From a virus (lineage: Duplodnaviria > Caudoviricetes): DNA of 64,000 nucleotides. Where the stretch lies: the IMG/VR virus record IMGVR_UViG_3300042295_001683, positions 9,404 to 73,403 of that record; one strand, written 5' to 3'. Positions within the stretch are counted from its first letter, which is position 1; each line of letters begins with the position of its first letter. Positions 1,797 to 62,239 of this stretch are shown one piece after another. The notes beneath the pieces were generated by a model. That model had not been told where the DNA came from, searched no databases, and worked only from the letters and a program-made list of their open reading frames with translations. The position numbers and the translations under genes are program-made.

Positions 1797-2111
1797 TCAA
1801 CTCTTGCCCTGCTCTAATTTCCGTTCAACCTTTGCAACGACTTGCCTGATGTTCTCAGGATCGCGCCCTAGCTTTTCGGCTGTTGCGATGACCTTGCGAT
1901 CGCACTCGATCCAAGTTGTGTATATCTCCCATTGCAAGGGAGTAATCCCAAAATACTTAAGCACAATTGCTTGTATTGACTGCGATGCGTTGTCACCAAG
2001 GGCGGCGATCGCATCTCCTAAGATTGGGCTAAAACAGTAGGAATATGTTTTAGCCTTTATTTCGGGCGGTTTCTTAGGTCTACCGCCGCCGTGGTTGCCT
2101 CCTCTAGGCAT
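1797..2111 (-). CDS. small DNA-binding protein (N-terminal GRP/AT-hook-like motif, C-terminal HTH-like)
   Basis: MPRGGNHGGGRPKK; C-terminal TAEKLGRDPENIRQVV. Confidence 0.6.
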   Translation of the reverse strand: MPRGGNHGGGRPKKPPEIKAKTYSYCFSPILGDAIAALGDNASQSIQAIVLKYFGITPLQWEIYTTWIECDRKVIATAEKLGRDPENIRQVVAKVERKLEQGKS

Positions 2112-2403
2112 TTATTAGCTCCATAGCTCTTTTTGTCGCTCCACAATGCCCAAACTCATTAATTGACTCTTGAAGAATCAATTTAAAAGCATCAATAGAC
2201 ATCTCGAAAGTATGAGATTCTTCAATATCAATGACCTCATCTAGCCCACACGCTTCGATGCTGTCTGAATCAAGAAAGAACCCATCATGCGTATGCTCGT
2301 AACTTACAGAGCATACGCCGTTAGCATACTGGTAAGCCTCAAAGGTATAAGTCCCCTTTGCGTTATATTCTTGCGCTGTAACCGTTAAAACTGTGACTTG
2401 CAT
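2104..2403 (-). CDS. small acidic hypothetical protein (cassette cargo)
   Basis: follows consensus promoter and AAGG RBS. Confidence 0.65.
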   Translation of the reverse strand: MQVTVLTVTAQEYNAKGTYTFEAYQYANGVCSVSYEHTHDGFFLDSDSIEACGLDEVIDIEESHTFEMSIDAFKLILQESINEFGHCGATKRAMELINA

Positions 2404-2499: not shown

Positions 2500-2527
2500 A
2501 AAAAAAGCCGTCGCGAGTGCGTCGGCT
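2500..2527 (-). terminator. intrinsic terminator closing the type IV operon
   Basis: AGCCGACGC-act-CGCGACGGC(T) hairpin followed by a T run on the minus strand. Confidence 0.65.
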
Positions 2528-2585: not shown

Positions 2586-3173
2586 TTATTCAAAAAATCC
2601 GCATCCTAGATGTTTGCGACCTCCCAACCCTTTCTCTTGTAATATTAAAGACTCGTTAGGGCGCAAATCTGAAAACATTACAGGGTATACAGCACACGGT
2701 TGCTTTTTAATAATTAGCTGCTCCTTGCGCCCTATTGTTGGCAGTGTATTAATATCAAACTTTGTTAGTTGCTTGCCTAGCGACACCGCAAACCTAGTAA
2801 GATCGGGTTCACGATTGTTGTCGGTTTTAATTGATACCCAAGCCGCTAGATTCTCTTGAGATTTTAGCTCTGTGCCATTAACCAGCTTGAGTTTAATCAA
2901 CTCTTTGCCTAAATGGATTTGACAATCAAAAAGCATCGTTAGCTCTGTAATTAAATCTTTGGAGCAACGTAGCTTTATAGTGCTTTGAGTTAAACGTAAT
3001 GTGCGATCGTCAAAAATATTTGTGTTACTGATTCTACTGATCGCCCACTCAGGGTTATCTTTGAGCTTAGGAGATAAGCTGGTCAGCGCTGAATATAAGC
3101 AATAGTGATAATTCCGTGGGATTAACACCCCTTCAATACTGAATAAAAATTCTATAAAATTGCAGTTAGGCAT
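2586..3173 (-). CDS. cas6: Cas6 endoribonuclease (Cmx6/I-MYXAN-like)
   Basis: N-terminal F.I.G..IP.NYHY.LYSAL and C-terminal glycine loop LQEKGLGGRKHLGCGFF. Confidence 0.85.
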   Translation of the reverse strand: MPNCNFIEFLFSIEGVLIPRNYHYCLYSALTSLSPKLKDNPEWAISRISNTNIFDDRTLRLTQSTIKLRCSKDLITELTMLFDCQIHLGKELIKLKLVNGTELKSQENLAAWVSIKTDNNREPDLTRFAVSLGKQLTKFDINTLPTIGRKEQLIIKKQPCAVYPVMFSDLRPNESLILQEKGLGGRKHLGCGFFE

Positions 3174-3525
3174 TGATAATCACCAATCTTTTTTCACTAT
3201 CTACAGGTTGATGCTTGTTTGCAATAGATAAAAGAAAAAGCCCGTCATTTCCAGCCCTTACCCTATGAGGTTGCGAACCGTCTATAAAGTAGCAAGTTCC
3301 TTTGATGATTGGTTGTGTTTCATCGCCGCAATCAATCCATCCAGACCCCTCTACTCCAAACAAAATATGATCACCCTCATGGGTATGAAGAGAAGTTTTT
3401 TCGTTAGGTGCGAAATTCAACATGTCAGCAGCAAAGCCGTCTTTTTTTACCAGTGGCAATCCGATAGCTTGACTGCCATACATCTGATACCAGTAATCAG
3501 CATCTAAATAATTTTTAATTTGCAT
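3166..3525 (-). CDS. cupin-domain protein
   Basis: HTHEGDHILFGVEGSG ... GTCYFIDGSQPHRV metal-binding cupin motifs. Confidence 0.85.
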   Translation of the reverse strand: MQIKNYLDADYWYQMYGSQAIGLPLVKKDGFAADMLNFAPNEKTSLHTHEGDHILFGVEGSGWIDCGDETQPIIKGTCYFIDGSQPHRVRAGNDGLFLLSIANKHQPVDSEKRLVIINA

Positions 3526-4183
3526 ACAATAATCCTTTTAGGTATTCAAAATATTCTGGCGAAATCTTGCGAAACTCTTCTAATCTTGTAGCTTGATATT
3601 GATTGTTAGTATTTTTGCTGACATGATCTGTAGTTCGTTTTGCGCCTAAATCATAGGCTTTTAGGTATGGTAATTCATGGGAAAGCGTATAAGCCCAAAT
3701 ATCGTTTTCACTCCAATTAAAAACAGGGCAAGCTCTGTAATCTCCTTTTTTGTATTGATAGATAGCGCCATTTTTTAGCAAGGTTGCTTTACGTTTTGCG
3801 CTTTCTTCTATCCGCAATCCAACAAAAGCGACAGGATAATCAATCCATAATTTTTGTGACTTAACTTTGTTAGGGACATGATCGCCTTGCATCAAAATAG
3901 TTTGAATGTTTAGCCCAAATTTGTCCTGATATTTTGATTCTGTTTCAGCATAATTACTAATCATTTCTCTTTCATAATGTCCAAAAGAAATAGCCAAAAT
4001 ATTAGGACAAATCGACTGCACCAAATGAAGCATTACGACTGAATCCTTACCCCATGACACCGCAACATAAGAAGGAGCGATCGCTAAAGCCTCTCGAATA
4101 ATCTCTTTAGCTTTCTCAACTTTGCGCTTAAATGTTGGCAGTGTCGCATGAGCTAAGAATGCATCGCGTTCTATTCTCTCCAT
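3515..4183 (-). CDS. cysH: CysH/PAPS-reductase-like PP-loop protein (type IV-B accessory)
   Basis: AVSWGKDSVVM PP-loop, VGLRIEES, CPVFNWSENDIWAY. Confidence 0.85.
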   Translation of the reverse strand: MERIERDAFLAHATLPTFKRKVEKAKEIIREALAIAPSYVAVSWGKDSVVMLHLVQSICPNILAISFGHYEREMISNYAETESKYQDKFGLNIQTILMQGDHVPNKVKSQKLWIDYPVAFVGLRIEESAKRKATLLKNGAIYQYKKGDYRACPVFNWSENDIWAYTLSHELPYLKAYDLGAKRTTDHVSKNTNNQYQATRLEEFRKISPEYFEYLKGLLYAN

Positions 4184-4857
4184 ACATTATCCGTTGGCAT
4201 ATAGCATATAGTTCTATTGGATTGCAGAAAATACGGTGTTCGCCACCCCCAGTTCATCATATTGATAGATTGAGGTTGTGGAATCATATTAATTGGCATT
4301 GGTCGGGCTAAACTTTCACCTCTCCACAAATGCCAATCATGTTCAAAAGGAAGTACTTCCCATTTGTGTACCTGCCCGCAACCTTGCGATCGCTTCTTAC
4401 CAAGATGCGTAACATTTAGAATTAGTTCGCTAATCTTGTCAGCATTGCCAATCGCAAACCAGTGTATAGTCTGCATTTCGCGATCATATCGTGGTAAATC
4501 ATAGGCTTTAAAATGCCCTTGCGAACTATCAACCTTAGCTTTCTTTTTACCCCAATCAAGGTGTAGTTCTTGCTTGTCCCATCGCTTACGGTAACGCTGA
4601 GTTTGTTGATGATTTTCGATGTAATGTGGTGAACTCACGGCCCAATACCACTCGCCTTTAAGCGTCTTCCGAGCGATCGGCATTTCATCAAAAATCAAGG
4701 GCAGATTCTTTTCAGCATCCGCAGCCGTTGGATTAGGCGTGATTAACCCTAATTGGTCTAACAATTGATACTCAATCAGGGCATCAAAGCTAGGGGACCA
4801 GTCATCATAGGCAACTAGCGGCGTTGCCATGTGTGCAATTATTTGGAGGTTATCCAT
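4171..4857 (-). CDS. csf3: type IV CRISPR Cas5-like RAMP
   Basis: LQIIAHMATP start, SSQGHFKAY, HLGKKRSQGCGQVHKWEV G-loop, LARPMP, GWRTPY. Confidence 0.85.
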   Translation of the reverse strand: MDNLQIIAHMATPLVAYDDWSPSFDALIEYQLLDQLGLITPNPTAADAEKNLPLIFDEMPIARKTLKGEWYWAVSSPHYIENHQQTQRYRKRWDKQELHLDWGKKKAKVDSSQGHFKAYDLPRYDREMQTIHWFAIGNADKISELILNVTHLGKKRSQGCGQVHKWEVLPFEHDWHLWRGESLARPMPINMIPQPQSINMMNWGWRTPYFLQSNRTICYMPTDNVWRE

Positions 4858-6058
4858 TCAATAAACTCCTAATATCGCTTTTAGAATCAGCAAGAAATCC
4901 TTTGTAATCTTCGAGATATTCTTTATACCTTGCATGAGATTCAGAGGCGCGATCGCTTAATTTCTGAGCATGAGGTGTAATCGTCATAAACTCACCGCGA
5001 TCGCCCTCCGCAGTCTCAAACCAGAATTGCATAGAACATAGTCCGCAACCCGTTCCTGATTGACCGCCTAAGTATGGCGATTCAGCAAACTTGAGTAAAG
5101 CATCAGCAATAAATCCTTCTTCGATTCTGGTGACGTTTGCGCTCCAATAAGAGTACAAAGTAGCACCTGTTTGAAGTAGCCAATTACCCATGATCATCTG
5201 TTGGCTTTTCTCTCTTTCGGGCTTTGCTTTGTCACCTTTCCCTTTCTTAGTTTCTTCAGAAACTATGCCAAATAGATCGCCTTGAGAAATCATCTTTTGA
5301 GGTTCTGGAGTAGCGCCGATCAAATGTTTTGCAAAGTTAGGATCGTGAAGTGAATCGCGCCTTGTCTTTTGGCTATAGGTAAGCCAATCGGAATAATATC
5401 GAAGCCTTTCTCCCAAGAACGGCATCCATTCAGCAAGCAATGCCTTTAGATCGTAATTATTAACATCCGAAGGAGAACCATGATGTAGCCATTGATTCAC
5501 TCGTTGACTATGCTGTAAGTCTTTGCCATCGATAATCTGCTCTAGTGCTGGTATGACTTCGATTGGCAACGCAGGGGGGAACATCTGATAAAGATACTTA
5601 GCGCTCTCTACACAAGCCAAATAAGCATCACCAACAGCGATCCGACCGTGCACCATTTGAGCATCGGATACACCAAACAATCCTTTAGGTTTGGCGGTTC
5701 CTAGTACTGAGAGGCATGGCAAAAGCTGACGGATTTTTCTATCCAAATCCAAATCATTACCCGTGCCACCATCAATCGCGCCGCCACAAAATAGAGCGTG
5801 ATGCATCGTTGGCGATACTTGCACACCAATCTGAGATAAGAAAGAATCAATACCACACCGCCTTAAAATTCGATTGCGTAGTGAGTTGCCAGAAAGTGTG
5901 AAAACTTCAGAGGGATTGCCTTCTAAATCCGTCACCTTCATTGTTCGCAAGTTTGTTTGATTGCCTACGGACTCACTGATATGGGACAAAGGCTGTAGCA
6001 AAGTAATCTGCAAATGTAGTTTGATATTATGGCGATCGTGTGGGTTGTAATTAAGCAT
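4850..6058 (-). CDS. csf2: type IV CRISPR Cas7-like backbone protein
   Basis: ITLLQPLSH, LSGNSLRNRILRR, LFCGG, IRQLLPCLSVLG, YLGGQSGTGCG. Confidence 0.88.
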   Translation of the reverse strand: MLNYNPHDRHNIKLHLQITLLQPLSHISESVGNQTNLRTMKVTDLEGNPSEVFTLSGNSLRNRILRRCGIDSFLSQIGVQVSPTMHHALFCGGAIDGGTGNDLDLDRKIRQLLPCLSVLGTAKPKGLFGVSDAQMVHGRIAVGDAYLACVESAKYLYQMFPPALPIEVIPALEQIIDGKDLQHSQRVNQWLHHGSPSDVNNYDLKALLAEWMPFLGERLRYYSDWLTYSQKTRRDSLHDPNFAKHLIGATPEPQKMISQGDLFGIVSEETKKGKGDKAKPEREKSQQMIMGNWLLQTGATLYSYWSANVTRIEEGFIADALLKFAESPYLGGQSGTGCGLCSMQFWFETAEGDRGEFMTITPHAQKLSDRASESHARYKEYLEDYKGFLADSKSDIRSLLNG

Positions 6059-6575
6059 TGATAGTAGCCTCTACATCTAGAGTATTTTCTGTTTCTTCTG
6101 GAATATTCAAAGCGCGATCGCTTTCAAAGCGAACACGACAATAAGTAGTAATAATGTGCGGTCTTGATTTGCACAAACCGAGGATATGGCGATCGCTTAT
6201 CCCGTGAGGTTTAAGAGAGTTGAGAATATCTTGCCATCCGAGCCATTGCAAATGTTGATCGCTATCAATTTGCTGAATGTCTCCCATACTGCCATCATCA
6301 TTCACAGTAGCCCGTAAAACCACTTGTTTTGGCGCGATTATGCGAGTCCATTCTTTTGGGTTGAGGTGTGCAACAATAAGCTTCTTGGCTAAATTCTCAA
6401 TGTAGTCGTCGATATTGCGAGAGGGAATAGCAGCATTTTGGATACTGCTTTGAAAATATTCCCATGTTTTTAAGCCCATGGCAGGGCTTTTGCCCTTGTC
6501 TCTACAGCGAAAAACCCAGTAACTAAGCGCACTGGCTAAAGCTGTAACCCTGTCTTCCGTTTCTATTCCATACAT
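6051..6575 (-). CDS. cas11: probable Cas11-like small subunit
   Basis: helical 174-aa ORF coupled directly upstream of csf2, the usual IV-B position; WEYFQSSIQNAA...DDYIENLAKKL. Confidence 0.55.
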   Translation of the reverse strand: MYGIETEDRVTALASALSYWVFRCRDKGKSPAMGLKTWEYFQSSIQNAAIPSRNIDDYIENLAKKLIVAHLNPKEWTRIIAPKQVVLRATVNDDGSMGDIQQIDSDQHLQWLGWQDILNSLKPHGISDRHILGLCKSRPHIITTYCRVRFESDRALNIPEETENTLDVEATINA

Positions 6576-6603: not shown

Positions 6604-6945
6604 TTATTCTAGATCACAAACAGCATTCCAAGCCGCCAACTTAGCTTTACCGACAGACACACCACGCGCCCTAGCATGGTCAAAAGCTTTATTACGCAGT
6701 CTACTTAACTCACGCGCCCGCATCTCCTTTGGTGTCGCCTTACGCAGTTTAGGAATAGCGCGATAATTACCCTCAACGCATTCAATATGCAAGCGCCTGT
6801 TACCGTATGCGATCGCGCCTTGGTTAAGAAGTAAGCGCAATGCGCTCGTATTGATTTGCGTGCATATTTCGATATAGCGCAGAGAGTAAGAGCCGCGATG
6901 GGTGGTAAAAAAGCCGATGAGCTTAGCTCGTTCAATTTCTTGCAT
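6604..6945 (-). CDS. basic hypothetical protein
   Basis: ORF in operon. Confidence 0.55.
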   Translation of the reverse strand: MQEIERAKLIGFFTTHRGSYSLRYIEICTQINTSALRLLLNQGAIAYGNRRLHIECVEGNYRAIPKLRKATPKEMRARELSRLRNKAFDHARARGVSVGKAKLAAWNAVCDLE

Positions 6946-7331
6946 TAATCATGCTCTCCATCATCATCAATAATCGCAACCTGTGGCGGTGCGATTGGTG
7001 TGGGGTTTATGGCTAGTAGGAGCTTACAGAGTGCGAGTGCTGGTGATAGCGCATCATACTCAATAGGGCTGGTCAAAGTTGTTGCTCGACAAGCTGACCC
7101 TGTTCCATGCATAGCAGGAAGATAAATAAGGCGGTAGCATATCTTAAATGACTCAAACACCTTAACAATCGCATCCAAGCTCTCGACATAATTAGGGATA
7201 AACTTACGTAGCTCTGGATGTGTTGCGTTAGTGCCGATGTACGTTTTCTTGGTTGCGCTGGTATTCCAGTTTTCGATCTCAGTCCATCCTGCGATCGCTG
7301 CAACTGCGCGGTTAATTTCTTCGTTAGTCAT
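6945..7331 (-). CDS. phage ABA-sandwich-like protein
   Basis: EINRAVAAIAGW...PNYVESLDAIVKV...SPALALCKLLL pattern. Confidence 0.5.
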   Translation of the reverse strand: MTNEEINRAVAAIAGWTEIENWNTSATKKTYIGTNATHPELRKFIPNYVESLDAIVKVFESFKICYRLIYLPAMHGTGSACRATTLTSPIEYDALSPALALCKLLLAINPTPIAPPQVAIIDDDGEHD

Positions 7332-28686: not shown

Positions 28687-30573
28687 CTATAAAGTAGCTA
28701 ATCCGATCATTGTATTTGGCTTAATTGGATTGTAATTAATATACAAATCTGCTAAGCCGATCATTGTAGAAGGGGCGATCGGGTTGAAATTTATACGTAA
28801 ATCTGCAAGCCCGATCATATTAAAATTGCCTAACGTAATCGCAACGGGGCGCGATATTACCGTAGGGGTGCTAGCGGGGGCTGTACCAACTTCGATACCG
28901 TTAAAAACTAACCATGCTTCTGTCCCATTTAATCCCCATTTAATGCAATCTAATTTTAAGTAATAAATTAAATCTGCGTCTGTCACCGCTACATCCGCAA
29001 AAGGCTTAAAAGCACTACTTAAAGCTGTGTCAGTAATCGCGCCGCCAAATTGCTGACCATAAGCACGCCCTGATAATATGCGATTAAATCGAGAGCCATA
29101 ATCAACTAATTGAGACTGATCAACTGTGTAGGGTACATCTATTGTTCTTTGCCTTGGTCGGTACGGATCGGCGGCTAATTGCTGTGCAAATATTTCTGCT
29201 TTTAGCTGTACTTCTTCTGTAGTGTTTGTGCTTGCATCACCAAAATTTGTAGGTGGGCCAGACGTATCTTTATCGTCGCTAAAGTTTGCCGCTGTAAATA
29301 GCACAGTAGGATTTTGATCGCCTAATGCCGTCCCTTTAAAAATTACTCCTGCTGGTTCATGTCGAGTATAAGTTTTAATCCATTTTTGCGATCCTGTGTT
29401 TACCCATTCATAATCTTCTCTTTTAGCCGTAATTAGTACTGAAGGATTTTGATCGCCAAAAGTAGTTCCTTTTATAATTACCCCTGCTGGTTGAAAAGAT
29501 GTTACAGTTTGAGCCGTAACAATCCCATTGACAAGAGTATAAGTATTTATGGATTTGTCAGATATAAATAGCACAGTAGGATTTTGATCGCCTAATGCCG
29601 TCCCTTTAAAAAGTACCCCTGCTGGTTCGCGTGTTTCTATGGTTTTTTCAAAAAATGTTGAACTTATCTCTGATGTGGTTATTGTCCTTTTAGCCGTAAA
29701 TAACGCGGTAGGATTTTGATCTCCAAAAGTAGTCCCTTTAAAAAGTACCCCTGCTGGCTGTGTGTCAATTACTTCGCTAGGTGCGGTGTCTACAGGTATT
29801 ATTTCTTTTACCGTACCTGTAACTATTAATTTTTCAATTGGTTGTTCTGCGATATCACCGATCGCGTCCCATAATTTTTCGTCAGAGCCAATTATATAAG
29901 AAGCGATAGCACTGCCAGAATAGATGGCACTGATAGGCTCTGCGATTACCGTACCAGCGCTATTGCATCGCAAATAGTACCCTGCACTATCAGCGATCGC
30001 CCCTGCAAATCCAATAAAATTACCAGTTTGCTTTGGCAGTGGATAGGCGATCGGATAGGGGATAGAGTCAATCGAATTAGCAACGTCGATATAGTTAAGG
30101 ATATTTGTGATTACGGTATTTCTTGCTAATGGTGTACCCGCCGTAATACCAGATATATCTTGATTTGGTTCGGGTGGAAAATTCTCTAAAGCTAATCGAC
30201 AGCCAATTTCCAAAGATAATTCTAATATGCCATCCATATTCCTTTTTGGTTTTTGAGGCATTTTTAGCAAATGCAAAGCTTGCCCACTACAAGGCAGATA
30301 AGTAAGCGTTCCTGATGTATTTGCAGTTCGGATCGTGACTAGTTGACCCCGTTTCCATTGACTAGGGTTAAGTCTAGGATTAGGTGAACTTGGCACGGTT
30401 GAATCGTAGCGAGAAATTTTAAGATTAATGGAGCCTGTGACTGGCATTAATCCAGTCCCAACCTCATATTCTGGATAACCCAAAATTATTCCAGAATCAA
30501 AGCTAATCCAGTTAGTCCAATTTTGCGATCCTATAATTAATTCGCATCTGCGAGATGAGAGATTAAGCGTCAT
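28687..30573 (-). CDS. tail-tip/hub-like structural protein with internal repeats
   Basis: position in tail operon; four PAGV..KGT..GDQNP..L repeats. Confidence 0.65.
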   Translation of the reverse strand: MTLNLSSRRCELIIGSQNWTNWISFDSGIILGYPEYEVGTGLMPVTGSINLKISRYDSTVPSSPNPRLNPSQWKRGQLVTIRTANTSGTLTYLPCSGQALHLLKMPQKPKRNMDGILELSLEIGCRLALENFPPEPNQDISGITAGTPLARNTVITNILNYIDVANSIDSIPYPIAYPLPKQTGNFIGFAGAIADSAGYYLRCNSAGTVIAEPISAIYSGSAIASYIIGSDEKLWDAIGDIAEQPIEKLIVTGTVKEIIPVDTAPSEVIDTQPAGVLFKGTTFGDQNPTALFTAKRTITTSEISSTFFEKTIETREPAGVLFKGTALGDQNPTVLFISDKSINTYTLVNGIVTAQTVTSFQPAGVIIKGTTFGDQNPSVLITAKREDYEWVNTGSQKWIKTYTRHEPAGVIFKGTALGDQNPTVLFTAANFSDDKDTSGPPTNFGDASTNTTEEVQLKAEIFAQQLAADPYRPRQRTIDVPYTVDQSQLVDYGSRFNRILSGRAYGQQFGGAITDTALSSAFKPFADVAVTDADLIYYLKLDCIKWGLNGTEAWLVFNGIEVGTAPASTPTVISRPVAITLGNFNMIGLADLRINFNPIAPSTMIGLADLYINYNPIKPNTMIGLATL

Positions 30574-37210: not shown

Positions 37211-37511
37211 CTTCCAATCAGCCGATCACTTAACCAGAAGTTTCACCACTATCGCCTCTCTTCCAATCAGCCGATCGCTTAACCAAAAGTTTCACCATTC
37301 TGAGTTTCCAAAAATTGCAAATAACCTTGCCTTCCAATCAATTGATCGTCTAACCACTAGTTTCACCATGAACTAGAGCGCCGCTTTACAGCCTGTATCG
37401 GTACTTCCAATCAGCCGATCGCTTAACCAAAAGTTTCACTGGACAAAATGACAATTTTATATGTCAGCTACCTTCCTTCCAATCAGCCGATCGCTTAACC
37501 AGAAGTTTCAC
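37211..37511 (-). CRISPR. mini CRISPR array: 5 repeats of 36 bp and 4 spacers (36, 37, 35, 13 nt reading from the leader)
   Basis: repeats at 37211-37246, 37260-37295, 37331-37366 (degenerate), 37404-37439, 37476-37511; minus-strand consensus GTGAAACTTYTGGTTAAGCGATCGGCTGATTGGAAG. Confidence 0.93.
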
Positions 37512-39240
37512 CTAACAGATCCCAAAAACCAAGCTGAGAGCCAATATTAGGATCGATTTGCGCGGATCGCTTACGAGATTGCAATTTAGAGTCGGCTTTA
37601 GATAGTGATTTTAAATCTTGCCATAGCTCAAAGTCTTGTGGTGATTGGTTTTCAGAGTTTGCGCGAGTGGTTAGGTTGCGATCTAGCTGTAAATCATTGT
37701 CTGGTAAGGGCTTAAGCTTATCAGCTTCCAATCTTTTATCAGTACTATTTACAGCCCCGCTTTCGCGGTTGATTGCGGGAGTTGTTTCTCCTCCCGATCC
37801 TTTCTTACTCTTGCGAGTCTTACTCGGTTGGCGCTTCTTCCCATGCGTTGCATGATCCACGCCCTTAAATTCCCCCGATGAAGCGGGGTATGGTATCAGT
37901 ACCAAGCCTTTAAAAGCAACATTACGGATAACGGTTGAGGCGTTGTTATCTGCGTTGTCACCATGACCACAATTCAAGCATTTAAAAACAGCTTGAGATG
38001 GTCGAAACTTTTCGGAATAGTAGCCACACTGAGAGCAACCTTGAGAAGTGTGCGGTGCGGGTACTTTCACAAATATTCTTTCTGATGCTTTAGATTTAGT
38101 CTCTAGCATCGTCTTTGTTTTACCGATCGCCACATCATGAAGCGATTTATTTAAACCAGCTTTAGCAGCCGATCCGTTGGGTAGAAAAGCGCCATTTTCA
38201 CCAGCTTTCGCCTTTGGTGCGCGTACCATATTTTTAACTTTGGTATCTTCAATGGCGATGCTTTGATATTCACTTACATATTTTGAAGTGAGCTTATGGA
38301 TAAAGCGATCCCTTTGCCTAGCGATTTTAAGATGCGCTTTAGCTAGTTTAGAGCGTTTAGCTTTTAGCCTGTTAGAGCCATCTTTTGAGCGAGAGATAGA
38401 GCGCTGAATACGAGCTAATTTCTTAGCTTGCATCTTTGCGTAACGCTTAGATTTGTGTAGTCTCCCATCACTATCTGCAATAGGAGCGACTACACCAAAA
38501 TCTAAACCTACTTCTTGCTTTTTTGCTGGTTTAACGGGCTTTACATCTACCGTGCTAGTGAATTGCACATAATAACCATCAGCTTTTTGGACGATGCGTA
38601 CAATCGTATGATTGCCAGCATAGCGACGGTAGAATCCCTTGCATTTGATTTGTCCTAGTCTTGGATAATCAATTAATGCATTGTCATTACCCAAGGGCAA
38701 AATATTAACGTATATCCGACCGTTGCCATTAGAAAAGCTTTCTAATTTATCAGCTTTCTTTTTGTAACGTGGTCTGCCTTTTTTTCCCTTGCGGTACTGA
38801 GTCCATGCATCAATTAGGTTATCCACAACAGATCGCCGTGATTCGCCATCAATAGAGTGTAGAAAATCAGGACACCGCATATTAGCGATAAAGCGATAAT
38901 TTTTAACGTGCTTAAATGGCTCTTCAATATCCCGATGTTTGCGGATGTCGCATTTATCAGGATAGTAAGCACAGCAAAGCCCGTATTGATTATCAGGATT
39001 TACATACTCAATCCCGTCGATTTTGCATGATTTTCGCCATTGCCATACTTCAGGACTATACTCTGCCCATTCTTGTTTTGCCCTCCAATAACGTTGCTGA
39101 TCTTCCTCAAGCAGACTTAAACCAACATTCCATACCCATTTAAGTTGAGTAAGCCACAAATCAATTTGTGTGCTTTGCTCAATCGTGGGAGACAACTTAA
39201 ATTCAGTTATCTTTTTAGTAGTGGCTTCATTGCTAGTCAT
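37495..39240 (-). CDS. TnpB-like type V effector (C2c8/V-U2-like compact Cas12)
   Basis: EFKLSPT...WVWNVGL; RuvC-I VGLDFG, RuvC-II IAIED, HTSQGCSQC/CLNC Zn ribbon, RuvC-III NADNNAS; abuts CRISPR array; no tnpA nearby. Confidence 0.85.
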   Translation of the reverse strand: MTSNEATTKKITEFKLSPTIEQSTQIDLWLTQLKWVWNVGLSLLEEDQQRYWRAKQEWAEYSPEVWQWRKSCKIDGIEYVNPDNQYGLCCAYYPDKCDIRKHRDIEEPFKHVKNYRFIANMRCPDFLHSIDGESRRSVVDNLIDAWTQYRKGKKGRPRYKKKADKLESFSNGNGRIYVNILPLGNDNALIDYPRLGQIKCKGFYRRYAGNHTIVRIVQKADGYYVQFTSTVDVKPVKPAKKQEVGLDFGVVAPIADSDGRLHKSKRYAKMQAKKLARIQRSISRSKDGSNRLKAKRSKLAKAHLKIARQRDRFIHKLTSKYVSEYQSIAIEDTKVKNMVRAPKAKAGENGAFLPNGSAAKAGLNKSLHDVAIGKTKTMLETKSKASERIFVKVPAPHTSQGCSQCGYYSEKFRPSQAVFKCLNCGHGDNADNNASTVIRNVAFKGLVLIPYPASSGEFKGVDHATHGKKRQPSKTRKSKKGSGGETTPAINRESGAVNSTDKRLEADKLKPLPDNDLQLDRNLTTRANSENQSPQDFELWQDLKSLSKADSKLQSRKRSAQIDPNIGSQLGFWDLLGETSG

Positions 39241-56384: not shown

Positions 56385-56816
56385 ATGAACGCCAACCAAA
56401 TCGCACAAATCGCAACCGCTTTAAACGTCTCTCCCAACCAAATCAAGAGAGCTGAGGAATGGAAGAATGTACTTTTTGTTGTAGTTCAAGGGATGGGTGC
56501 TCGTTTTGTATCTAAGAAGGTGATTAAGGACATGAACACTACATTTAAAGGGATTGAAATTACTGAAGGTAGCTCTGTTTGGGTTAAGGTACATGATGGA
56601 AGATCTCACAAATGGGATATAGCTACAATTTCTAAAATCAATGAAGACAACACCAAATTTTCCTTGAGAGAATTACCTTTTATTGTCGATATTGCAACAG
56701 GTGAAGCGACTCTTTTGGGCAAAGAAGCAGAACATTTTGAAGTTGGATATCCTTACAAATGGGATTACATGACTAGAAAAAGCAACTCTCCAACCACAGG
56801 TGTGATTTATGCCTAG
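56385..56816 (+). CDS. hypothetical protein (cassette cargo)
   Basis: QIATALNVSPNQIKRAEEWKNVLFVVVQGMGARFVSKK. Confidence 0.7.
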   Translation: MNANQIAQIATALNVSPNQIKRAEEWKNVLFVVVQGMGARFVSKKVIKDMNTTFKGIEITEGSSVWVKVHDGRSHKWDIATISKINEDNTKFSLRELPFIVDIATGEATLLGKEAEHFEVGYPYKWDYMTRKSNSPTTGVIYA

Positions 56817-56869: not shown

Positions 56870-57559
56870 GTGGCTTTTGCCATGAATAATAATAATTACT
56901 GCTACCTTTGCGCCGCACCTAAAGCTGATAAACCGTTAGTTCTCAAAGATTCATTCACTGCACATAGTAGCGCTAGATGTCCTGATTCAAAGCATCTATG
57001 CGATCGCTGTGCATGGGTGATTCCGTTAAGGGCTTTTTATTGGAATGAAGCGAAGGGGAAATACAGCACATTATTTGCTAGGGGCTGGTCATGGCTTCTT
57101 TCTGCTGATAATGCGTATGGTTCTTACCCTAAATTTGGTAATCAACATACTGAGGGGGGGAACACGCTAGAAATAGTTGATCGCCTCCCCACACGCGCCC
57201 AAATCAGGACTTGGTTGCTTGATCCGCCAAAGCCGCCCTTTACTATTTGCATTGCGGAATCAGGGCAAAAACATATTTTGCCCTGGGCGCTAGAGGCAAC
57301 TAATCGCGATTATTTCCCAGTGCAATTTGAGCTCGATACGTTGCATATATATCGATCTGCCTTTACGCATTTACTCGCACGGTACGAGGAGCTTATGGCT
57401 ATGGGATTCTCAAAAACCGAGATTAATAGTGGCAACTATCGCTCTGACAAATTAGCTAAGTGCATCAGTGAGTACGCAGCATGTGAGGCTGTGATCGCTG
57501 CTAAGCGTGGTAATCGCTTGCTAGATTTGGTTAGCTATGTTGCAAAAGTATCAGAGTAA
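56870..57559 (+). CDS. csf1: type IV CRISPR large subunit Csf1 (Cas8-like)
   Basis: CYLC...DSFT...S..LCDRC Zn finger; WLLDPPKPPF..CIAESGQKHILPWA; VQFE. Confidence 0.8.
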   Translation: MAFAMNNNNYCYLCAAPKADKPLVLKDSFTAHSSARCPDSKHLCDRCAWVIPLRAFYWNEAKGKYSTLFARGWSWLLSADNAYGSYPKFGNQHTEGGNTLEIVDRLPTRAQIRTWLLDPPKPPFTICIAESGQKHILPWALEATNRDYFPVQFELDTLHIYRSAFTHLLARYEELMAMGFSKTEINSGNYRSDKLAKCISEYAACEAVIAAKRGNRLLDLVSYVAKVSE

Positions 57560-61867: not shown

Positions 61868-62239
61868 TTAAGCTCTAGTATGTTTACCTGATAGACTCGC
61901 ATAATTCTGTAGTTTCAAATTGTCGATAAGCCATTGCCGATCGCCATTGTATAAAGCCATTGTAGCTCTAAGATCGGAGCCACTTTGTTTTGTAATACTG
62001 TAGAACGATGGGACAGATTGACTGGTTACTCCAAGACTGCCGTCGGTCATTTGAGTATCGATAGTAGTCTTGTATGTGTCTAACCCGTCAAGCTTTGATT
62101 GTACCTCAGTTATGGCACTCGCTCCGTATGTGTCTTCGTAGGTTGTGAGAGTGCTTTCAATTAGAGTGTAATAGTCGCGTGTGAGATTGAGGTATTTCAC
62201 GATGCGATCGCGATCGTTGTTTGTCCATGTTTGTGTCAT
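61868..62239 (-). CDS. probable head-tail adaptor
   Basis: WT.NDRDRIVKYL helical protein next to portal. Confidence 0.5.
   Translation of the reverse strand: MTQTWTNNDRDRIVKYLNLTRDYYTLIESTLTTYEDTYGASAITEVQSKLDGLDTYKTTIDTQMTDGSLGVTSQSVPSFYSITKQSGSDLRATMALYNGDRQWLIDNLKLQNYASLSGKHTRA

Follow-up and report, generated by a model that had tools for sequence, protein, structure and literature searches.

A type IV-B-like CRISPR-Cas operon with Cas6 and a CysH-cupin gene pair in a tailed cyanophage

In the 64-kb stretch of DNA analyzed here (the window), positions 2586-6575 of the minus strand are filled exactly by six overlapping, co-directional open reading frames (ORFs). These follow one another in the order cas11, csf2, csf3, cysH-like, cupin and cas6, with overlaps of 8, 8, 13, 11 and 8 nt between successive ORFs, and lead into a hairpin and T-run. 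An earlier note on this DNA had read the region as these six coupled genes, and PADLOC, Pfam and NCBIfam (TIGR02807) bear out all of the identities; its list went without csf1, which is present in the phage, outside the operon. The operon and the elements that bear on it are:

6051..6575, minus strand: cas11, type IV small subunit, 174 aa (PADLOC Cas11_2_IV, 5.7e-13)
4850..6058, minus strand: csf2, type IV Cas7, 402 aa (PADLOC Csf2_0_IV, 4e-43)
4171..4857, minus strand: csf3, type IV Cas5, 228 aa (PADLOC Csf3_0_IV, 4.9e-47)
3515..4183, minus strand: cysH-like PP-loop protein, clade A, 222 aa (Pfam PAPS_reduct, 1.1e-17)
3166..3525, minus strand: cupin, His-rich metal-site protein, 119 aa (Pfam Cupin_2, 7.2e-9)
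2586..3173, minus strand: cas6, Cmx6 family, 195 aa (Pfam PF09559, 7.4e-33; NCBIfam TIGR02807 cas6_cmx6)
2500..2527, minus strand: likely operon terminator, hairpin and T-run, read by eye
56870..57559, plus strand: csf1, type IV large subunit, 229 aa (HMM 349.6 bits; PADLOC Csf1_0_IV, 1.8e-27)
37495..39240, minus strand: Cas12u2/Cas12f-like gene, a separate type V module, 581 aa (PADLOC Cas12u2, 1.9e-104)
37211..37513, minus strand: mini CRISPR array, 5 repeats of ~36 nt

The terminator that the earlier note had placed at the end of the operon is recognizable by eye on the minus strand as a hairpin spanning 2527-2506 (a stem of 5 and 3 pairs separated by one mismatch, with a 4-nt loop) continuing into seven T's, the last at 2500; the automated terminator scan listed none on this strand after cas6. 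A promoter-like site of the next gene (2470-2442, 11/12 match) lies beyond the T-run. The window corresponds to positions 9404-73403 of a 73,403-base IMG/VR phage record (CheckV completeness 95%), and the phage encodes a large terminase, portal, RecT, Ant, DNA methyltransferase, dCTP deaminase and tape-measure protein. The HIP1 motif (GCGATCGC), a cyanobacterial signature, occurs 78 times against 0.77 expected, some Csf2 relatives are named in their source records as Pseudanabaena or Cyanobacteriota, and a spacer of the phage's array (below) matches a plasmid of Pseudanabaena galeata. The carrier is a Pseudanabaena-type tailed cyanophage.

Profile matches to the Csf proteins are uneven: PADLOC recognizes Csf2 and Csf3, and both Pfam and NCBIfam recognize Cas6, but the NCBIfam equivalog scores fall far under cut-off for Csf2 (22.1 vs 130) and Csf3 (TIGR03116; 64.5 vs 140), and Pfam gave no match for the Cas11, Csf2 and Csf3 proteins. 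Among PDB entries, a Csf2 profile built from 17 relatives matched Cas7c (11fs_C, 1.6e-9), the type IV-B Csf2 (7jhy_e, 2.6e-7) and the type IV-A Csf2 (8rc2_A, 5.5e-6); the Csf2 relatives fall into 109 clusters. An HMM built from the Csf1 proteins of relatives located csf1 ~50 kb from the operon and on the opposite strand (+). Its counterpart in the complete relative G001 is 98% identical and likewise separated from the operon, and that of G009, 88% identical, lies together with the operon; csf1 is intact and conserved in the window phage. These comparisons show a backbone operon for Cas11, Csf2 and Csf3, with the gene for the large subunit Csf1 at a separate place in the genome. The marks of subtype IV-B, namely cas11, csf1 and cysH, are all present, and neither a DinG-type Helicase_C_2 domain (domain search) nor Cas1 was found in the record. 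We therefore regard the locus, with the operon parts listed above, as very probably a variant of type IV-B.

Type IV-B is described in the pertinent passages of PMC7038947, PMC8175902 and PMC11656645 as normally devoid of both Cas6 and an array and as unresolved in function, in agreement with the earlier note. That note's view of Cas6 as unusual in IV-B stands insofar as such cases are rare, but they are not unprecedented, because PMC7038947, in the passage on this point, reports "rare exceptions: only 12 instances". Among 59 related loci, cas11 was found in 55, cysH next to csf genes in 47, cas6 within or next to the operon in 21, and the cupin in 7; the 38 loci from which cas6 is absent include some truncated contigs. 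The cupin occurs without cas6 in two loci (L155 and L171), and cas6 without the cupin in many. Thus the cupin and cas6 vary independently of one another as accessories, and only a minority of relatives has either. Both nevertheless turn up repeatedly on deep branches, one example being a Gloeobacter plasmid with a Csf2 of 43% identity, so that the absence from related loci which the earlier note had named as a refutation applies only in part. Distant metagenome relatives (L189-L219, Csf2 identity 24-30%) mostly have the canonical csf1-cas11-csf2-csf3-cysH arrangement where the contig is long enough, and cas6 and the cupin were found in none of them; nor were they seen in three annotated canonical plasmid loci (two of Rhodococcus, one of Rhodovastum).

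The window Cas6 scores 104.3 bits against TIGR02807 (cut-off 98.85), matches the type I-B Cas6 8fcj_B (5.4e-10) and retains the C-terminal glycine-rich motif in the alignment. In that alignment a tyrosine of the window protein stands opposite the histidine of the 'ADHGY' stretch typical of the family, with a histidine of its own one position later, which makes its competence as a catalyst uncertain. At 27-34% identity, cellular Cmx6-type Cas6 proteins are too distant from it to indicate a cognate repeat. Loci with cas6 fall on at least 4 separate branches of the Csf2 phylogeny, and the position of the gene varies: after the partner gene, in the csf3-cysH, csf2-csf3 or csf2-cysH gap, or upstream of cas11. 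Such recurrence in the operon, at varied positions and on several branches, argues for selection rather than for a leftover, while the Csf complex would evidently work without Cas6, as most relatives lack the gene.

One source of guides that the earlier note had put forward was the element's own array. In that case Cas6 would mature the crRNAs of the mini-array at 37211-37513 and load them onto the IV-B complex, which would yield a self-contained phage CRISPR system. The array is real: its spacers measure 36, 37, 35 and 13 nt (three full-length spacers and a 13-nt remnant), and it lies on the same strand as the operon. Spacer 1 matches the Pseudanabaena galeata plasmid pPg_01 at 100% over 35 nt, plasmids being reported as favored targets of type IV in a passage of PMC7038947, and there is a published case of a mini-array with the IV-B of an archaeal virus (PMC10541130, in part). 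However, no array adjoins the IV-B operon. This one is ~30 kb away, its first repeat overlapping the stop codon of a gene whose product matches PADLOC Cas12u2 over its full length (Pfam OrfB_IS605, 4.2e-18; Cas12f1-like_TNB, 3.1e-13), and an array with the same repeat accompanies all three IMG/VR relatives of that gene. In the phage G007 the Cas12-like gene survives at 92% identity together with an array of 7 repeats, csf2, csf3 and csf1 are present only as fragments, and cas6 was not found; conversely, G001 possesses the operon with cas6, and both the Cas12-like gene and the array are absent from it. The six G007 spacers all differ from those of the window phage, and with a shared repeat and different spacers among related phages, spacers turn over. 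The predicted repeat hairpin extends to the 3' end and leaves no single-stranded 8-nt handle, on our reading of a fold with weak z-scores (-1.3 to -2.5). The array and the Cas12-like gene are thus inherited together, independently of IV-B and Cas6, and maturation of this array for the IV-B complex is quite unlikely.

Nor does Cas6 presence track array presence among 8 whole or nearly whole records: of the 6 with Cas6, 4 have an array, as does 1 of the 2 without Cas6. Both G001, 100% complete with direct terminal repeats, and G413, 96% complete, carry cas6, and the array scan found no CRISPR-like array in either. We propose that Cas6 would bind, and probably cut, repeat-like RNA and pass this RNA on to the Csf2/Cas11 filament, by analogy with Cas6/Csf5 of type IV-A, such that the Csf complex would be guided and not randomly loaded. 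Because Cas6 is present in complete relatives that are without an array, the guide RNA would most likely come from arrays outside the IV-B locus, either those of the host or other CRISPR modules on these phages. That Cas6 supplies guides to the Csf complex is, in our judgment, an evenly balanced proposition. A search for a host array of the phage's repeat type found none, the repeat 20-mer giving one chance hit in coding sequence. Its terminal-motif pattern gave near-singleton matches (at most 3 per genome) in 22 of 401 cyanobacterial genomes, about as many as the reversed-pattern control.

Cas6 without a phage array, as in G001 and G413, would suit an anti-CRISPR sponge, in which Cas6 and the Csf filament withhold host pre-crRNAs or crRNAs and CysH with its partner chemically inactivates the captured RNA. 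The sponge idea for IV-B is already in print (in passages of PMC8175902 and PMC7038947), a phage would profit from blocking host CRISPR, and Cmx6-type Cas6 genes are common in cyanobacteria (35/401 sampled genomes). Against this, PMC7038947, in the passage concerned, deems an anti-CRISPR of such complexity unlikely, no similarity to a host repeat was found anywhere in the phage, and the majority of relatives lack Cas6; we consider the sponge unlikely.

The second distinctive component is the pairing of CysH with the cupin. The CysH-like protein (Pfam PAPS_reduct, 65 bits vs cut-off 22.5) preserves the PP-loop SWGKDS, with S43, W44, G45, D47 and S48 invariant and K46 nearly so among 13 clade-A sequences, which share no invariant cysteine. 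The description of CasCysH in PMC8175902, in its pertinent part, agrees with this. The cysteine with which PAPS reductases carry out catalysis is missing. The cupin (Cupin_2, 35.7 bits vs cut-off 27.2) has five histidines (H47, H49, H53, H87 and H105) invariant in 15 sequences. Its best PDB relative is SbzM (9ug7; phmmer 1.3e-10, and Foldseek 1.1e-8 on a predicted model of pLDDT 84), at an identity of 26% that says little on substrate. The cupin lies directly 3' of cysH wherever scored (6/6 in the first set and 4/4 in the metagenome set, 10/10 together) and, per its annotation, in the Gloeobacter plasmid. In other loci a Coq4-like protein replaces it, again directly 3' of cysH (9/9 in the first set, 10/10 in the metagenome set). 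The HDxHH-x11-E motif of this partner is invariant; it matches Alr8543 (6e12_A) at 7.6e-5, and 1 of 4 tested proteins exceeds the cut-off of Pfam PF05019. The partner gene is confined to one deep clade of the CysH tree, being present in 15 of 17 unique clade-A sequences, the window CysH among this clade, and 0 of 21 in clade B.

At the DNA level, the window and L006 are 99.2% identical over 8000-3989, have no detectable similarity over 3988-3155 and are 94% identical over 3154-2418. As identity drops only over 3988-3155, the exchanged unit comprises the C-terminal part of CysH plus the partner. The comparison with L014 gave identical breakpoints, with the cassette edge in cysH at ~3989. The C-terminal two-thirds of cysH and the partner gene are thus swapped as one cassette between phages ~99% identical in the flanks. 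The two-enzyme module suggested by the earlier note gains support from gene context, because the cupin always follows cysH, the partner is limited to one clade, and the two are exchanged together. CysH and its partner probably constitute one functional unit.

Their reaction might nonetheless be foreign to the Csf complex. The Csf proteins would then assemble on non-CRISPR RNA as in Mycobacterium, Cas6 would be a leftover or bind RNA only, and CysH-cupin would form a sulfur/thiol metabolic module. In keeping with this, the only IV-B complex with a known structure had formed on heterogeneous RNA of non-CRISPR origin (PMC8175902, in part; PMC7937560), and SbzM, the nearest characterized relative of the cupin, uses free L-cysteine (PMC10989515, in part). 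CysH profile matches include sulfate-assimilation enzymes (NCBIfam), and Cas6 and the cupin are each dispensable in most relatives. A loose association of this kind is very unlikely, however, in view of the ORF overlaps all along the operon, the frequent placement of cysH beside csf genes, the missing reductase cysteine and the varied positions of cas6 in the operon on several branches. The best explanation overall, which we hold with about even confidence, is a phage IV-B variant with Cas6-loaded guides and CysH-cupin chemistry. As to that chemistry, CysH might perform an ATP-dependent adenylation of a substrate and the cupin, or the Coq4-like protein in other phages, a coupled metal-dependent step, a scheme that is possible yet doubtful. 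The biological role would be conflict with the host or other mobile elements. Cas6 and the swappable enzyme pair provide new handles on IV-B.

Several known systems may be compared with this locus. The IV-B system of Mycobacterium sp. JS623 (PDB 7JHY) likewise combines Cas11, Csf2, Csf3 and Csf1 with an adjacent CysH-like PP-loop protein that has no conserved cysteine, lacks a helicase, effector nuclease and Cas1, and is carried by a mobile element. In contrast, the window has Cas6 in the operon, a cupin partner of CysH, csf1 ~50 kb away and a tailed cyanophage as carrier, and its Csf2 is distant from that of 7jhy (profile E 2.6e-7, N-terminal third only). Type IV-A (Csf1-3, Cas6/Csf5, array and DinG) shares Cas6 in the operon and is, according to a passage of PMC7038947, a precedent for a Cas6-dependent, crRNA-guided type IV complex. 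Unlike it, the window lacks DinG and an operon-adjoining array, has cas11 and cysH, and its Cas6 belongs to the Cmx6 family, not Csf5. The 'atypical type IV-B' of the Fuxiviridae, viruses of Bathyarchaeia (PMC10541130, in part), is also virus-borne, with CysH and a mini-array in the genome; there the array lies within the IV-B locus, here beside the Cas12-like gene, and the portion of that description at hand mentions neither Cas6 nor a cupin. SbzM (PDB 9UG7), a cysteine-dioxygenase homologue of the cupin superfamily and a mononuclear metal enzyme (PMC10989515, in part), is the best match of the phage cupin in sequence and fold, though it has 215 aa against 119 aa. The Coq4 family (Pfam PF05019; Nostoc Alr8543, PDB 6E12) resembles the alternative CysH partner of related phages, which keeps the HDxxH-x11-E motif; the matches are weak, and the window itself has no Coq4-like protein. 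Finally, a locus of the linear plasmid pGMOR1 from Gloeobacter morelensis (NZ_CP063846.1, 77.4-82.9 kb), where most annotations read 'hypothetical', possesses the same gene set of cas11, csf2, cas6 (Cmx6), csf3, a PAPS-reductase family protein, cupin and csf1, but with cas6 between csf2 and csf3, csf1 contiguous after the cupin, and a plasmid rather than a phage as the carrier.

Inspection of the DNA at 2586-6575 bore out the earlier note's assertion that six genes form an operon there, and both the ORFs and their gene content proved correct against PADLOC, Pfam and NCBIfam profiles. The six ORFs lie on the minus strand, and neighbouring ends overlap by 8-13 nt; in operon order they are:

2586-6575, minus strand, first gene: cas11 small subunit, type IV (PADLOC Cas11_2_IV, 5.7e-13)
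second gene, minus strand: Csf2, the type IV Cas7 (PADLOC Csf2_0_IV, 4e-43)
third gene, minus strand: Csf3, a Cas5 (PADLOC Csf3_0_IV, 4.9e-47)
fourth gene, minus strand: CysH-like PP-loop protein of the PAPS-reductase family (Pfam PAPS_reduct, 1.1e-17)
fifth gene, minus strand: cupin (Pfam, 7.2e-9)
sixth and last gene, minus strand: Cas6 of the Cmx6 family (TIGR02807, 104.3 bits; curated cut-off 98.85)

Cas11, Csf2 and Csf3 are divergent members of their families, because none of the three has a Pfam match and the NCBIfam equivalogs for Csf2 (TIGR03115, 22.1 bits against a cut-off of 130) and Csf3 (TIGR03116, 64.5 bits against 140) fall far under their cut-offs. The only matches of a profile built from 17 Csf2 relatives are the three type IV Cas7 proteins of solved structure. 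On the 3' side of cas6 a hairpin at 2527-2506 (minus strand) is followed by seven T's ending at 2500, a feature read by eye that the terminator scan did not list. Past this terminator, a 99-aa ORF (2104-2403, minus strand) is lacking in the related loci L006, L014 and L025, whose similarity resumes only at ~2114, and on this comparison it is a window-specific insertion. At the other end, 28 nt upstream of cas11, two small ORFs of 113 and 128 aa (6604-7331, minus strand) gave no family match and may belong to the operon's transcription unit; the 113-aa ORF (up113) is kept at the same spot in most close relatives only. Contigs from the RNA libraries of two studies (82-424 nt among those listed) overlie parts of cas6, cysH, csf2 and cas11 with 90-99% likeness, and are not counted as proof of transcription, as DNA may be present and strand and level are not given; stretches that no such contig overlies carry no information. 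In the complete relative G001, an ORF with a GIY-YIG domain (L014 9199-9576; Pfam 2.9e-5) lies between csf2 and csf3 and looks like a homing-endonuclease insertion within the operon.

The remaining effector subunit is encoded some distance away, on the opposite strand:

56870-57559, plus strand: csf1, small Cas8-like large subunit, 229 aa (PADLOC Csf1_0_IV, 1.8e-27)

This protein scores 349.6 bits with an HMM built from the Csf1 proteins of relatives, and relatives' Csf1 proteins encoded next to the operon recover the same PADLOC profile (2.9e-27 in locus L035 and 1.4e-24 in the Gloeobacter morelensis plasmid pGMOR1). The phage therefore carries a complete IV-B effector set in which the large subunit has been relocated. 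The same split is seen in G001 (80 kb, direct terminal repeats), where csf1 is 98% identical, and csf1 is contiguous with the operon in the virus record G009 (75.5 kb, direct terminal repeats). Just upstream of csf1 is a 143-aa ORF (56385-56816, plus strand) with no family match; its first ~50 residues are found again ahead of csf1 in G001 (94%) and, in G009 (83%), in the interval from csf2 to csf3, and the ORF may represent a mobile or regulatory gene accompanying type IV genes.

Several features defining subtype IV-B are thus found in one genome: cas11, csf1, csf2, csf3 and a cysH-like PP-loop gene lacking the catalytic cysteine. The window's record has no Helicase_C_2 match of the kind sought for a DinG-type helicase and no Cas1, the six operon proteins contain neither helicase (DinG/RecD) nor HD-Cas10 domains, and no repeat family that might mark a CRISPR array at the operon was detected within the first 28 kb of the window. 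The exception concerns the absence of Cas6, by which IV-B is also recognized, as the last gene of the operon encodes a Cmx6-family Cas6. By its defining features, except for Cas6, the system is a subtype IV-B system.

The Csf2 relatives fall into 109 clusters of 36-100% identity. Besides the window and the Gloeobacter plasmid, 57 IMG/VR loci were examined, 59 in all, by tblastn and by iterated HMMs run on ORFs of 60 aa or more. The backbone is widespread in this set, with cas11 in 55 of the 59 loci, csf2 in 57, csf3 in 53, cysH in 47 and csf1 in 39, and there are fewer accessory genes: cas6 in 21, a Coq4-like gene in nine and cupin in seven. These figures count loci and not lineages, many being near-identical (42 unique sequences among 54 full-length Csf2 proteins) and several contigs truncated. 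Eighty metagenome loci, kept from 116 and including some that seem to duplicate IMG/VR contigs, to judge by identical length and gene order (e.g. L162 and L041), yielded cas6 in 12, cupin in four and a Coq4-like gene in 10. In a more distant group (24-30% identity), most of the contigs that are long enough carry the genes in the canonical order, csf1-cas11-csf2-csf3-cysH, and none has cas6 or cupin. The gene for Cas6 occurs on four or more branches of the Csf2 tree, at differing positions in the operon, and is also present on the Gloeobacter plasmid. L155 and L171 have cupin and no cas6, and many loci have cas6 and no cupin; the two vary independently. The earlier note had singled out the presence of both genes as unusual; both recur in relatives, each as a minority component. 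Two loci, L042 and L164, carry two IV-B sets in tandem on one contig, with csf3-cysH-csf1 repeated.

A more regular pattern emerges for the gene directly after cysH, which we term the partner. Wherever it could be scored, cupin lies directly downstream of cysH (6/6 in the 59-locus set and 4/4 in the metagenome set), and the same holds for the Coq4-like gene (9/9 and 10/10, respectively). The CysH tree has two deep clades, and a partner follows cysH in 15 of 17 unique members of clade A, which includes the window's CysH, and in none of 21 in clade B. Sister groups in clade A alternate between cupin and Coq4-like partners; in the tandem sets of L042 and L164, one CysH belongs to clade A and the other to clade B. 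The clearest case of exchange is provided by the close relative L006, whose Csf2 is identical to that of the window. Its DNA is 99.2% identical to the window from 8000 down to 3989 and 94% identical over 3154-2418, with no detectable similarity over window positions 3988-3155; L014, the locus of G001, has the same breakpoints. The exchanged block comprises the C-terminal two-thirds of cysH together with the partner, cupin in the window and Coq4-like in L006, and the shared N-terminal part of CysH carries the PP-loop. Because both are exchanged as one block, we infer from gene context that the variable part of CysH and the partner work together. The suggestion of the earlier note that CysH and cupin constitute a two-enzyme module thereby gains solid contextual support, from adjacency, from the distribution of partners in clade A and from joint exchange. 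Prediction of a CysH-cupin complex with two alignments gave a score of 0.00 and returned no answer, which counts neither way. We also considered whether canonical IV-B plasmids have a small CysH partner: in Rhodococcus opacus pROB01 (L137 2289-3602) cysH is followed, on its own strand, by a gene of the YciI family, and the idea was dropped because two other canonical loci lack such a gene.

In the Coq4-like partner an HDxHH-x11-E motif is invariant, and Coq4 itself is a metal-dependent enzyme of ubiquinone synthesis. Nostoc Alr8543 (PDB 6E12) is matched at 7.6e-5, and one of four Coq4-like proteins tested passes the Pfam cut-off. The cupin family is small (19 clusters), with H47, H49, H53, H87 and H105 invariant; its model is all-beta (pLDDT 84.2) and has 413 PDB matches at E<=0.001, all of them cupins among the matches listed. 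The predicted beta-barrel with conserved histidine ligands places it in the metal-binding cupin superfamily. Its best relative is SbzM (1.3e-10 by sequence and 1.1e-8 by fold). SbzM is a homologue of cysteine dioxygenases; it oxidises L-cysteine, and its metal is likely to be nickel or iron (PMC10989515). In the SWGKDS motif of clade-A CysH, residues S43, W44, G45, D47 and S48 are invariant and K46 nearly so, and there is no invariant cysteine. This agrees with the published account of CasCysH (PMC8175902), an ATP alpha-hydrolase-type protein that lacks the catalytic cysteine.

The presence of Cas6 raises the question of the RNA on which it acts. The window's Cas6 matches the Cmx6 family over its full length and above the curated cut-off (TIGR02807/PF09559), and the C-terminal glycine-rich GLGGRKHLGCGFF motif is conserved; it has a tyrosine where the family has a conserved histidine, with a histidine of its own one residue later. 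The earlier note had proposed that such a protein could mature crRNAs from the element's own array or from host arrays, and the window has a single array, which abuts another gene:

37211-37513, minus strand: CRISPR-like mini-array, five repeats of ~36 nt, spacers of 36, 37, 35 and 13 nt; the window's only array
37495-39240, minus strand: Cas12u2/Cas12f-like gene, 581 aa (PADLOC Cas12u2, 1.9e-104)

The first repeat overlaps the stop codon of the Cas12-like gene. The Cas12u2 profile match, called full-length, covers residues 10-475, and Pfam TnpB and Cas12f domains are recognized as well; judged by these matches, 37211-39240 (minus strand) is a compact type V module made up of a Cas12u2/Cas12f-like gene and an array. 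Acidic residues were noted by eye in a BLAST alignment at three RuvC-like positions (GLDFGV, IEDTKV and NADNNA). An array with the same repeat accompanies all three IMG/VR relatives of the Cas12-like gene. G007 (69.6 kb, 90% complete) has a 92% identical Cas12-like gene and a seven-repeat array with six different spacers, as well as a decayed IV-B locus (L027, 20.6-22.4 kb). What is left of this locus is csf2 residues 284-402, csf3 residues 1-132 and, of csf1, the final 20 residues; no cas6 was found in G007. Conversely, G001 has the IV-B operon with cas6 and lacks both the Cas12-like gene and an array. The array thus belongs with the type V module, and the element's own array is probably the wrong source of crRNA for the Csf complex, as it adjoins the Cas12-like gene and is inherited with it.

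Of eight whole or near-whole records that were compared, cas6 is present in six. Arrays occur in four of the six and adjoin a Cas12-like gene in the window's own record (G000) and in G412, Cas7e and Cas5e genes in G415, and no gene that was identified in G414; G001 and G413 have cas6 and no array in the 10-mer repeat scan. One of the two records without cas6, G007, has an array. As array presence is mixed among records with and without cas6, Cas6 is not tied to a phage array, and the RNA that it acts on most likely originates outside the IV-B locus. The scan sought exact 10-mers recurring at least three times at 45-95 nt spacing; mini-arrays of two repeats and solitary repeat units can escape it, and its one hit in G001 was a 51-nt tandem repeat without spacers. 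In G415 (L121; direct terminal repeats, CheckV estimate 71%), Cas7e (2.7e-69) and Cas5e (9.2e-41; both PADLOC) are encoded at 2917-4609, and arrays of stem-loop repeats at ~6.1 and ~14.6 kb stand beside them, in addition to IV-B with cas6. Three further loci (L050, L051 and L053) have a Cas12u2-like gene of 622-623 aa at ~12-17 kb (PADLOC 9.1e-58 for the L051 copy) and no cas6 within 8 kb; in both L050 and L051 two arrays that differ in their repeats (nine and at least 28 repeats in L051) lie a few kb away from the IV-B operon, and the fetched part of L053 contains one array.

A host array with the phage's repeat was sought and not found: a 20-mer scan of genome contigs gave one match, which lies in a Limnothrix coding sequence and is not a repeat; a pattern for the two ends of the repeat had no match in eight genomes of Limnothrix's order and occurred in 22 of 401 cyanobacterial genomes, nearly always as a single match (maximum three per genome), much like a reversed-pattern control. 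Cellular Cas6 relatives gave no cognate repeat either: they are only 27-34% identical to the window's Cas6, and when 20 of their loci were fetched with about ±1.5 kb on each side of the match, a single one had an array, with a repeat unlike the phage's. That Cas6 provides guides to the Csf complex is plausible.

The spacers and the genome as a whole offer indications of the host. Spacer 1 (37441-37476), nearest the Cas12-like gene, matches positions 62040-62074 of NZ_CP112875.1 (L220 5001-5035), the plasmid pPg_01 of Pseudanabaena galeata CCNP1313, with 100% identity across 35 nt; the matched stretch is intergenic, carries short tandem repeats, lies downstream of a DUF3854 gene and is not within an array. 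This suggests Pseudanabaena as the host genus and points to phage-plasmid conflict with the plasmid as the putative target. No protospacers were found in the phage itself or the fetched loci, INPHARED gave only chance-level matches, and the six G007 spacers matched no plasmid or phage. The IMG/VR virus record of which the window makes up 64 kb (73,403 bases, rated 95% complete) encodes a large terminase, portal, tape measure, RecT, Ant, a DNA methyltransferase and a dCTP deaminase, and has neither a DNA nor a Csf2 match among INPHARED phages. The palindrome GCGATCGC (HIP1), a marker of cyanobacteria, occurs 78 times against 0.77 expected, and the sources of some Csf2 relatives are named Pseudanabaena, Dolichospermum or Cyanobacteriota. 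Within a 628-aa ORF (28687-30573) a 67-nt unit occurs four times at ~135-nt spacing (29291-29759), probably reflecting a protein motif repeated within a structural gene.

Among the widespread CRISPR-Cas subtypes, only type IV-B has no assigned function: a passage of a 2024 review states that its function "remains to be characterized" (PMC11656645), and part of a 2025 classification update lists it among type IV systems without an effector nuclease (PMC12669027). In a portion of PMC8175902 two obstacles are named, the source of RNA and the role of CysH, and the cyanophage clade bears on both. We offer, as an unlikely possibility, that this clade is an RNA-guided chemical-modification system and not a nuclease or silencing system, in which the Csf complex, loaded by Cas6, would deliver a two-part effector to the target that its guide selects. 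Host arrays or other CRISPR modules would be the source of the guide; the effector would pair an adenylating PP-loop CysH with a dioxygenase-like cupin or Coq4-like metalloenzyme, and the interchangeable metalloenzyme would set the chemistry. If true, RNA-guided chemical modification would be the first mechanistic assignment for type IV-B. The many clade members with Cas6 imply a defined RNA substrate that can be sought, and the exchange of the metalloenzyme with the C-terminal part of CysH narrows the chemistry and furnishes natural swap variants for comparison. The clade is also abundant, as its Csf2 clusters and IMG/VR loci attest, and since it resides in small phage genomes of a culturable host genus it lends itself to testing.

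With respect to the literature, we found no publication combining "type IV-B" with "cupin", and neither the metalloenzyme partner of CysH with its cassette behaviour nor the split csf1 was found in print; a search for "cyanophage" with "type IV CRISPR" returned only unrelated work, and nothing on the size of the clade. Already in print are subtype IV-B itself, the rare exception of Cas6 in IV-B, for which PMC7038947 gives 12 instances, and virus-borne IV-B systems, one of them with a mini-array (PMC10541130).
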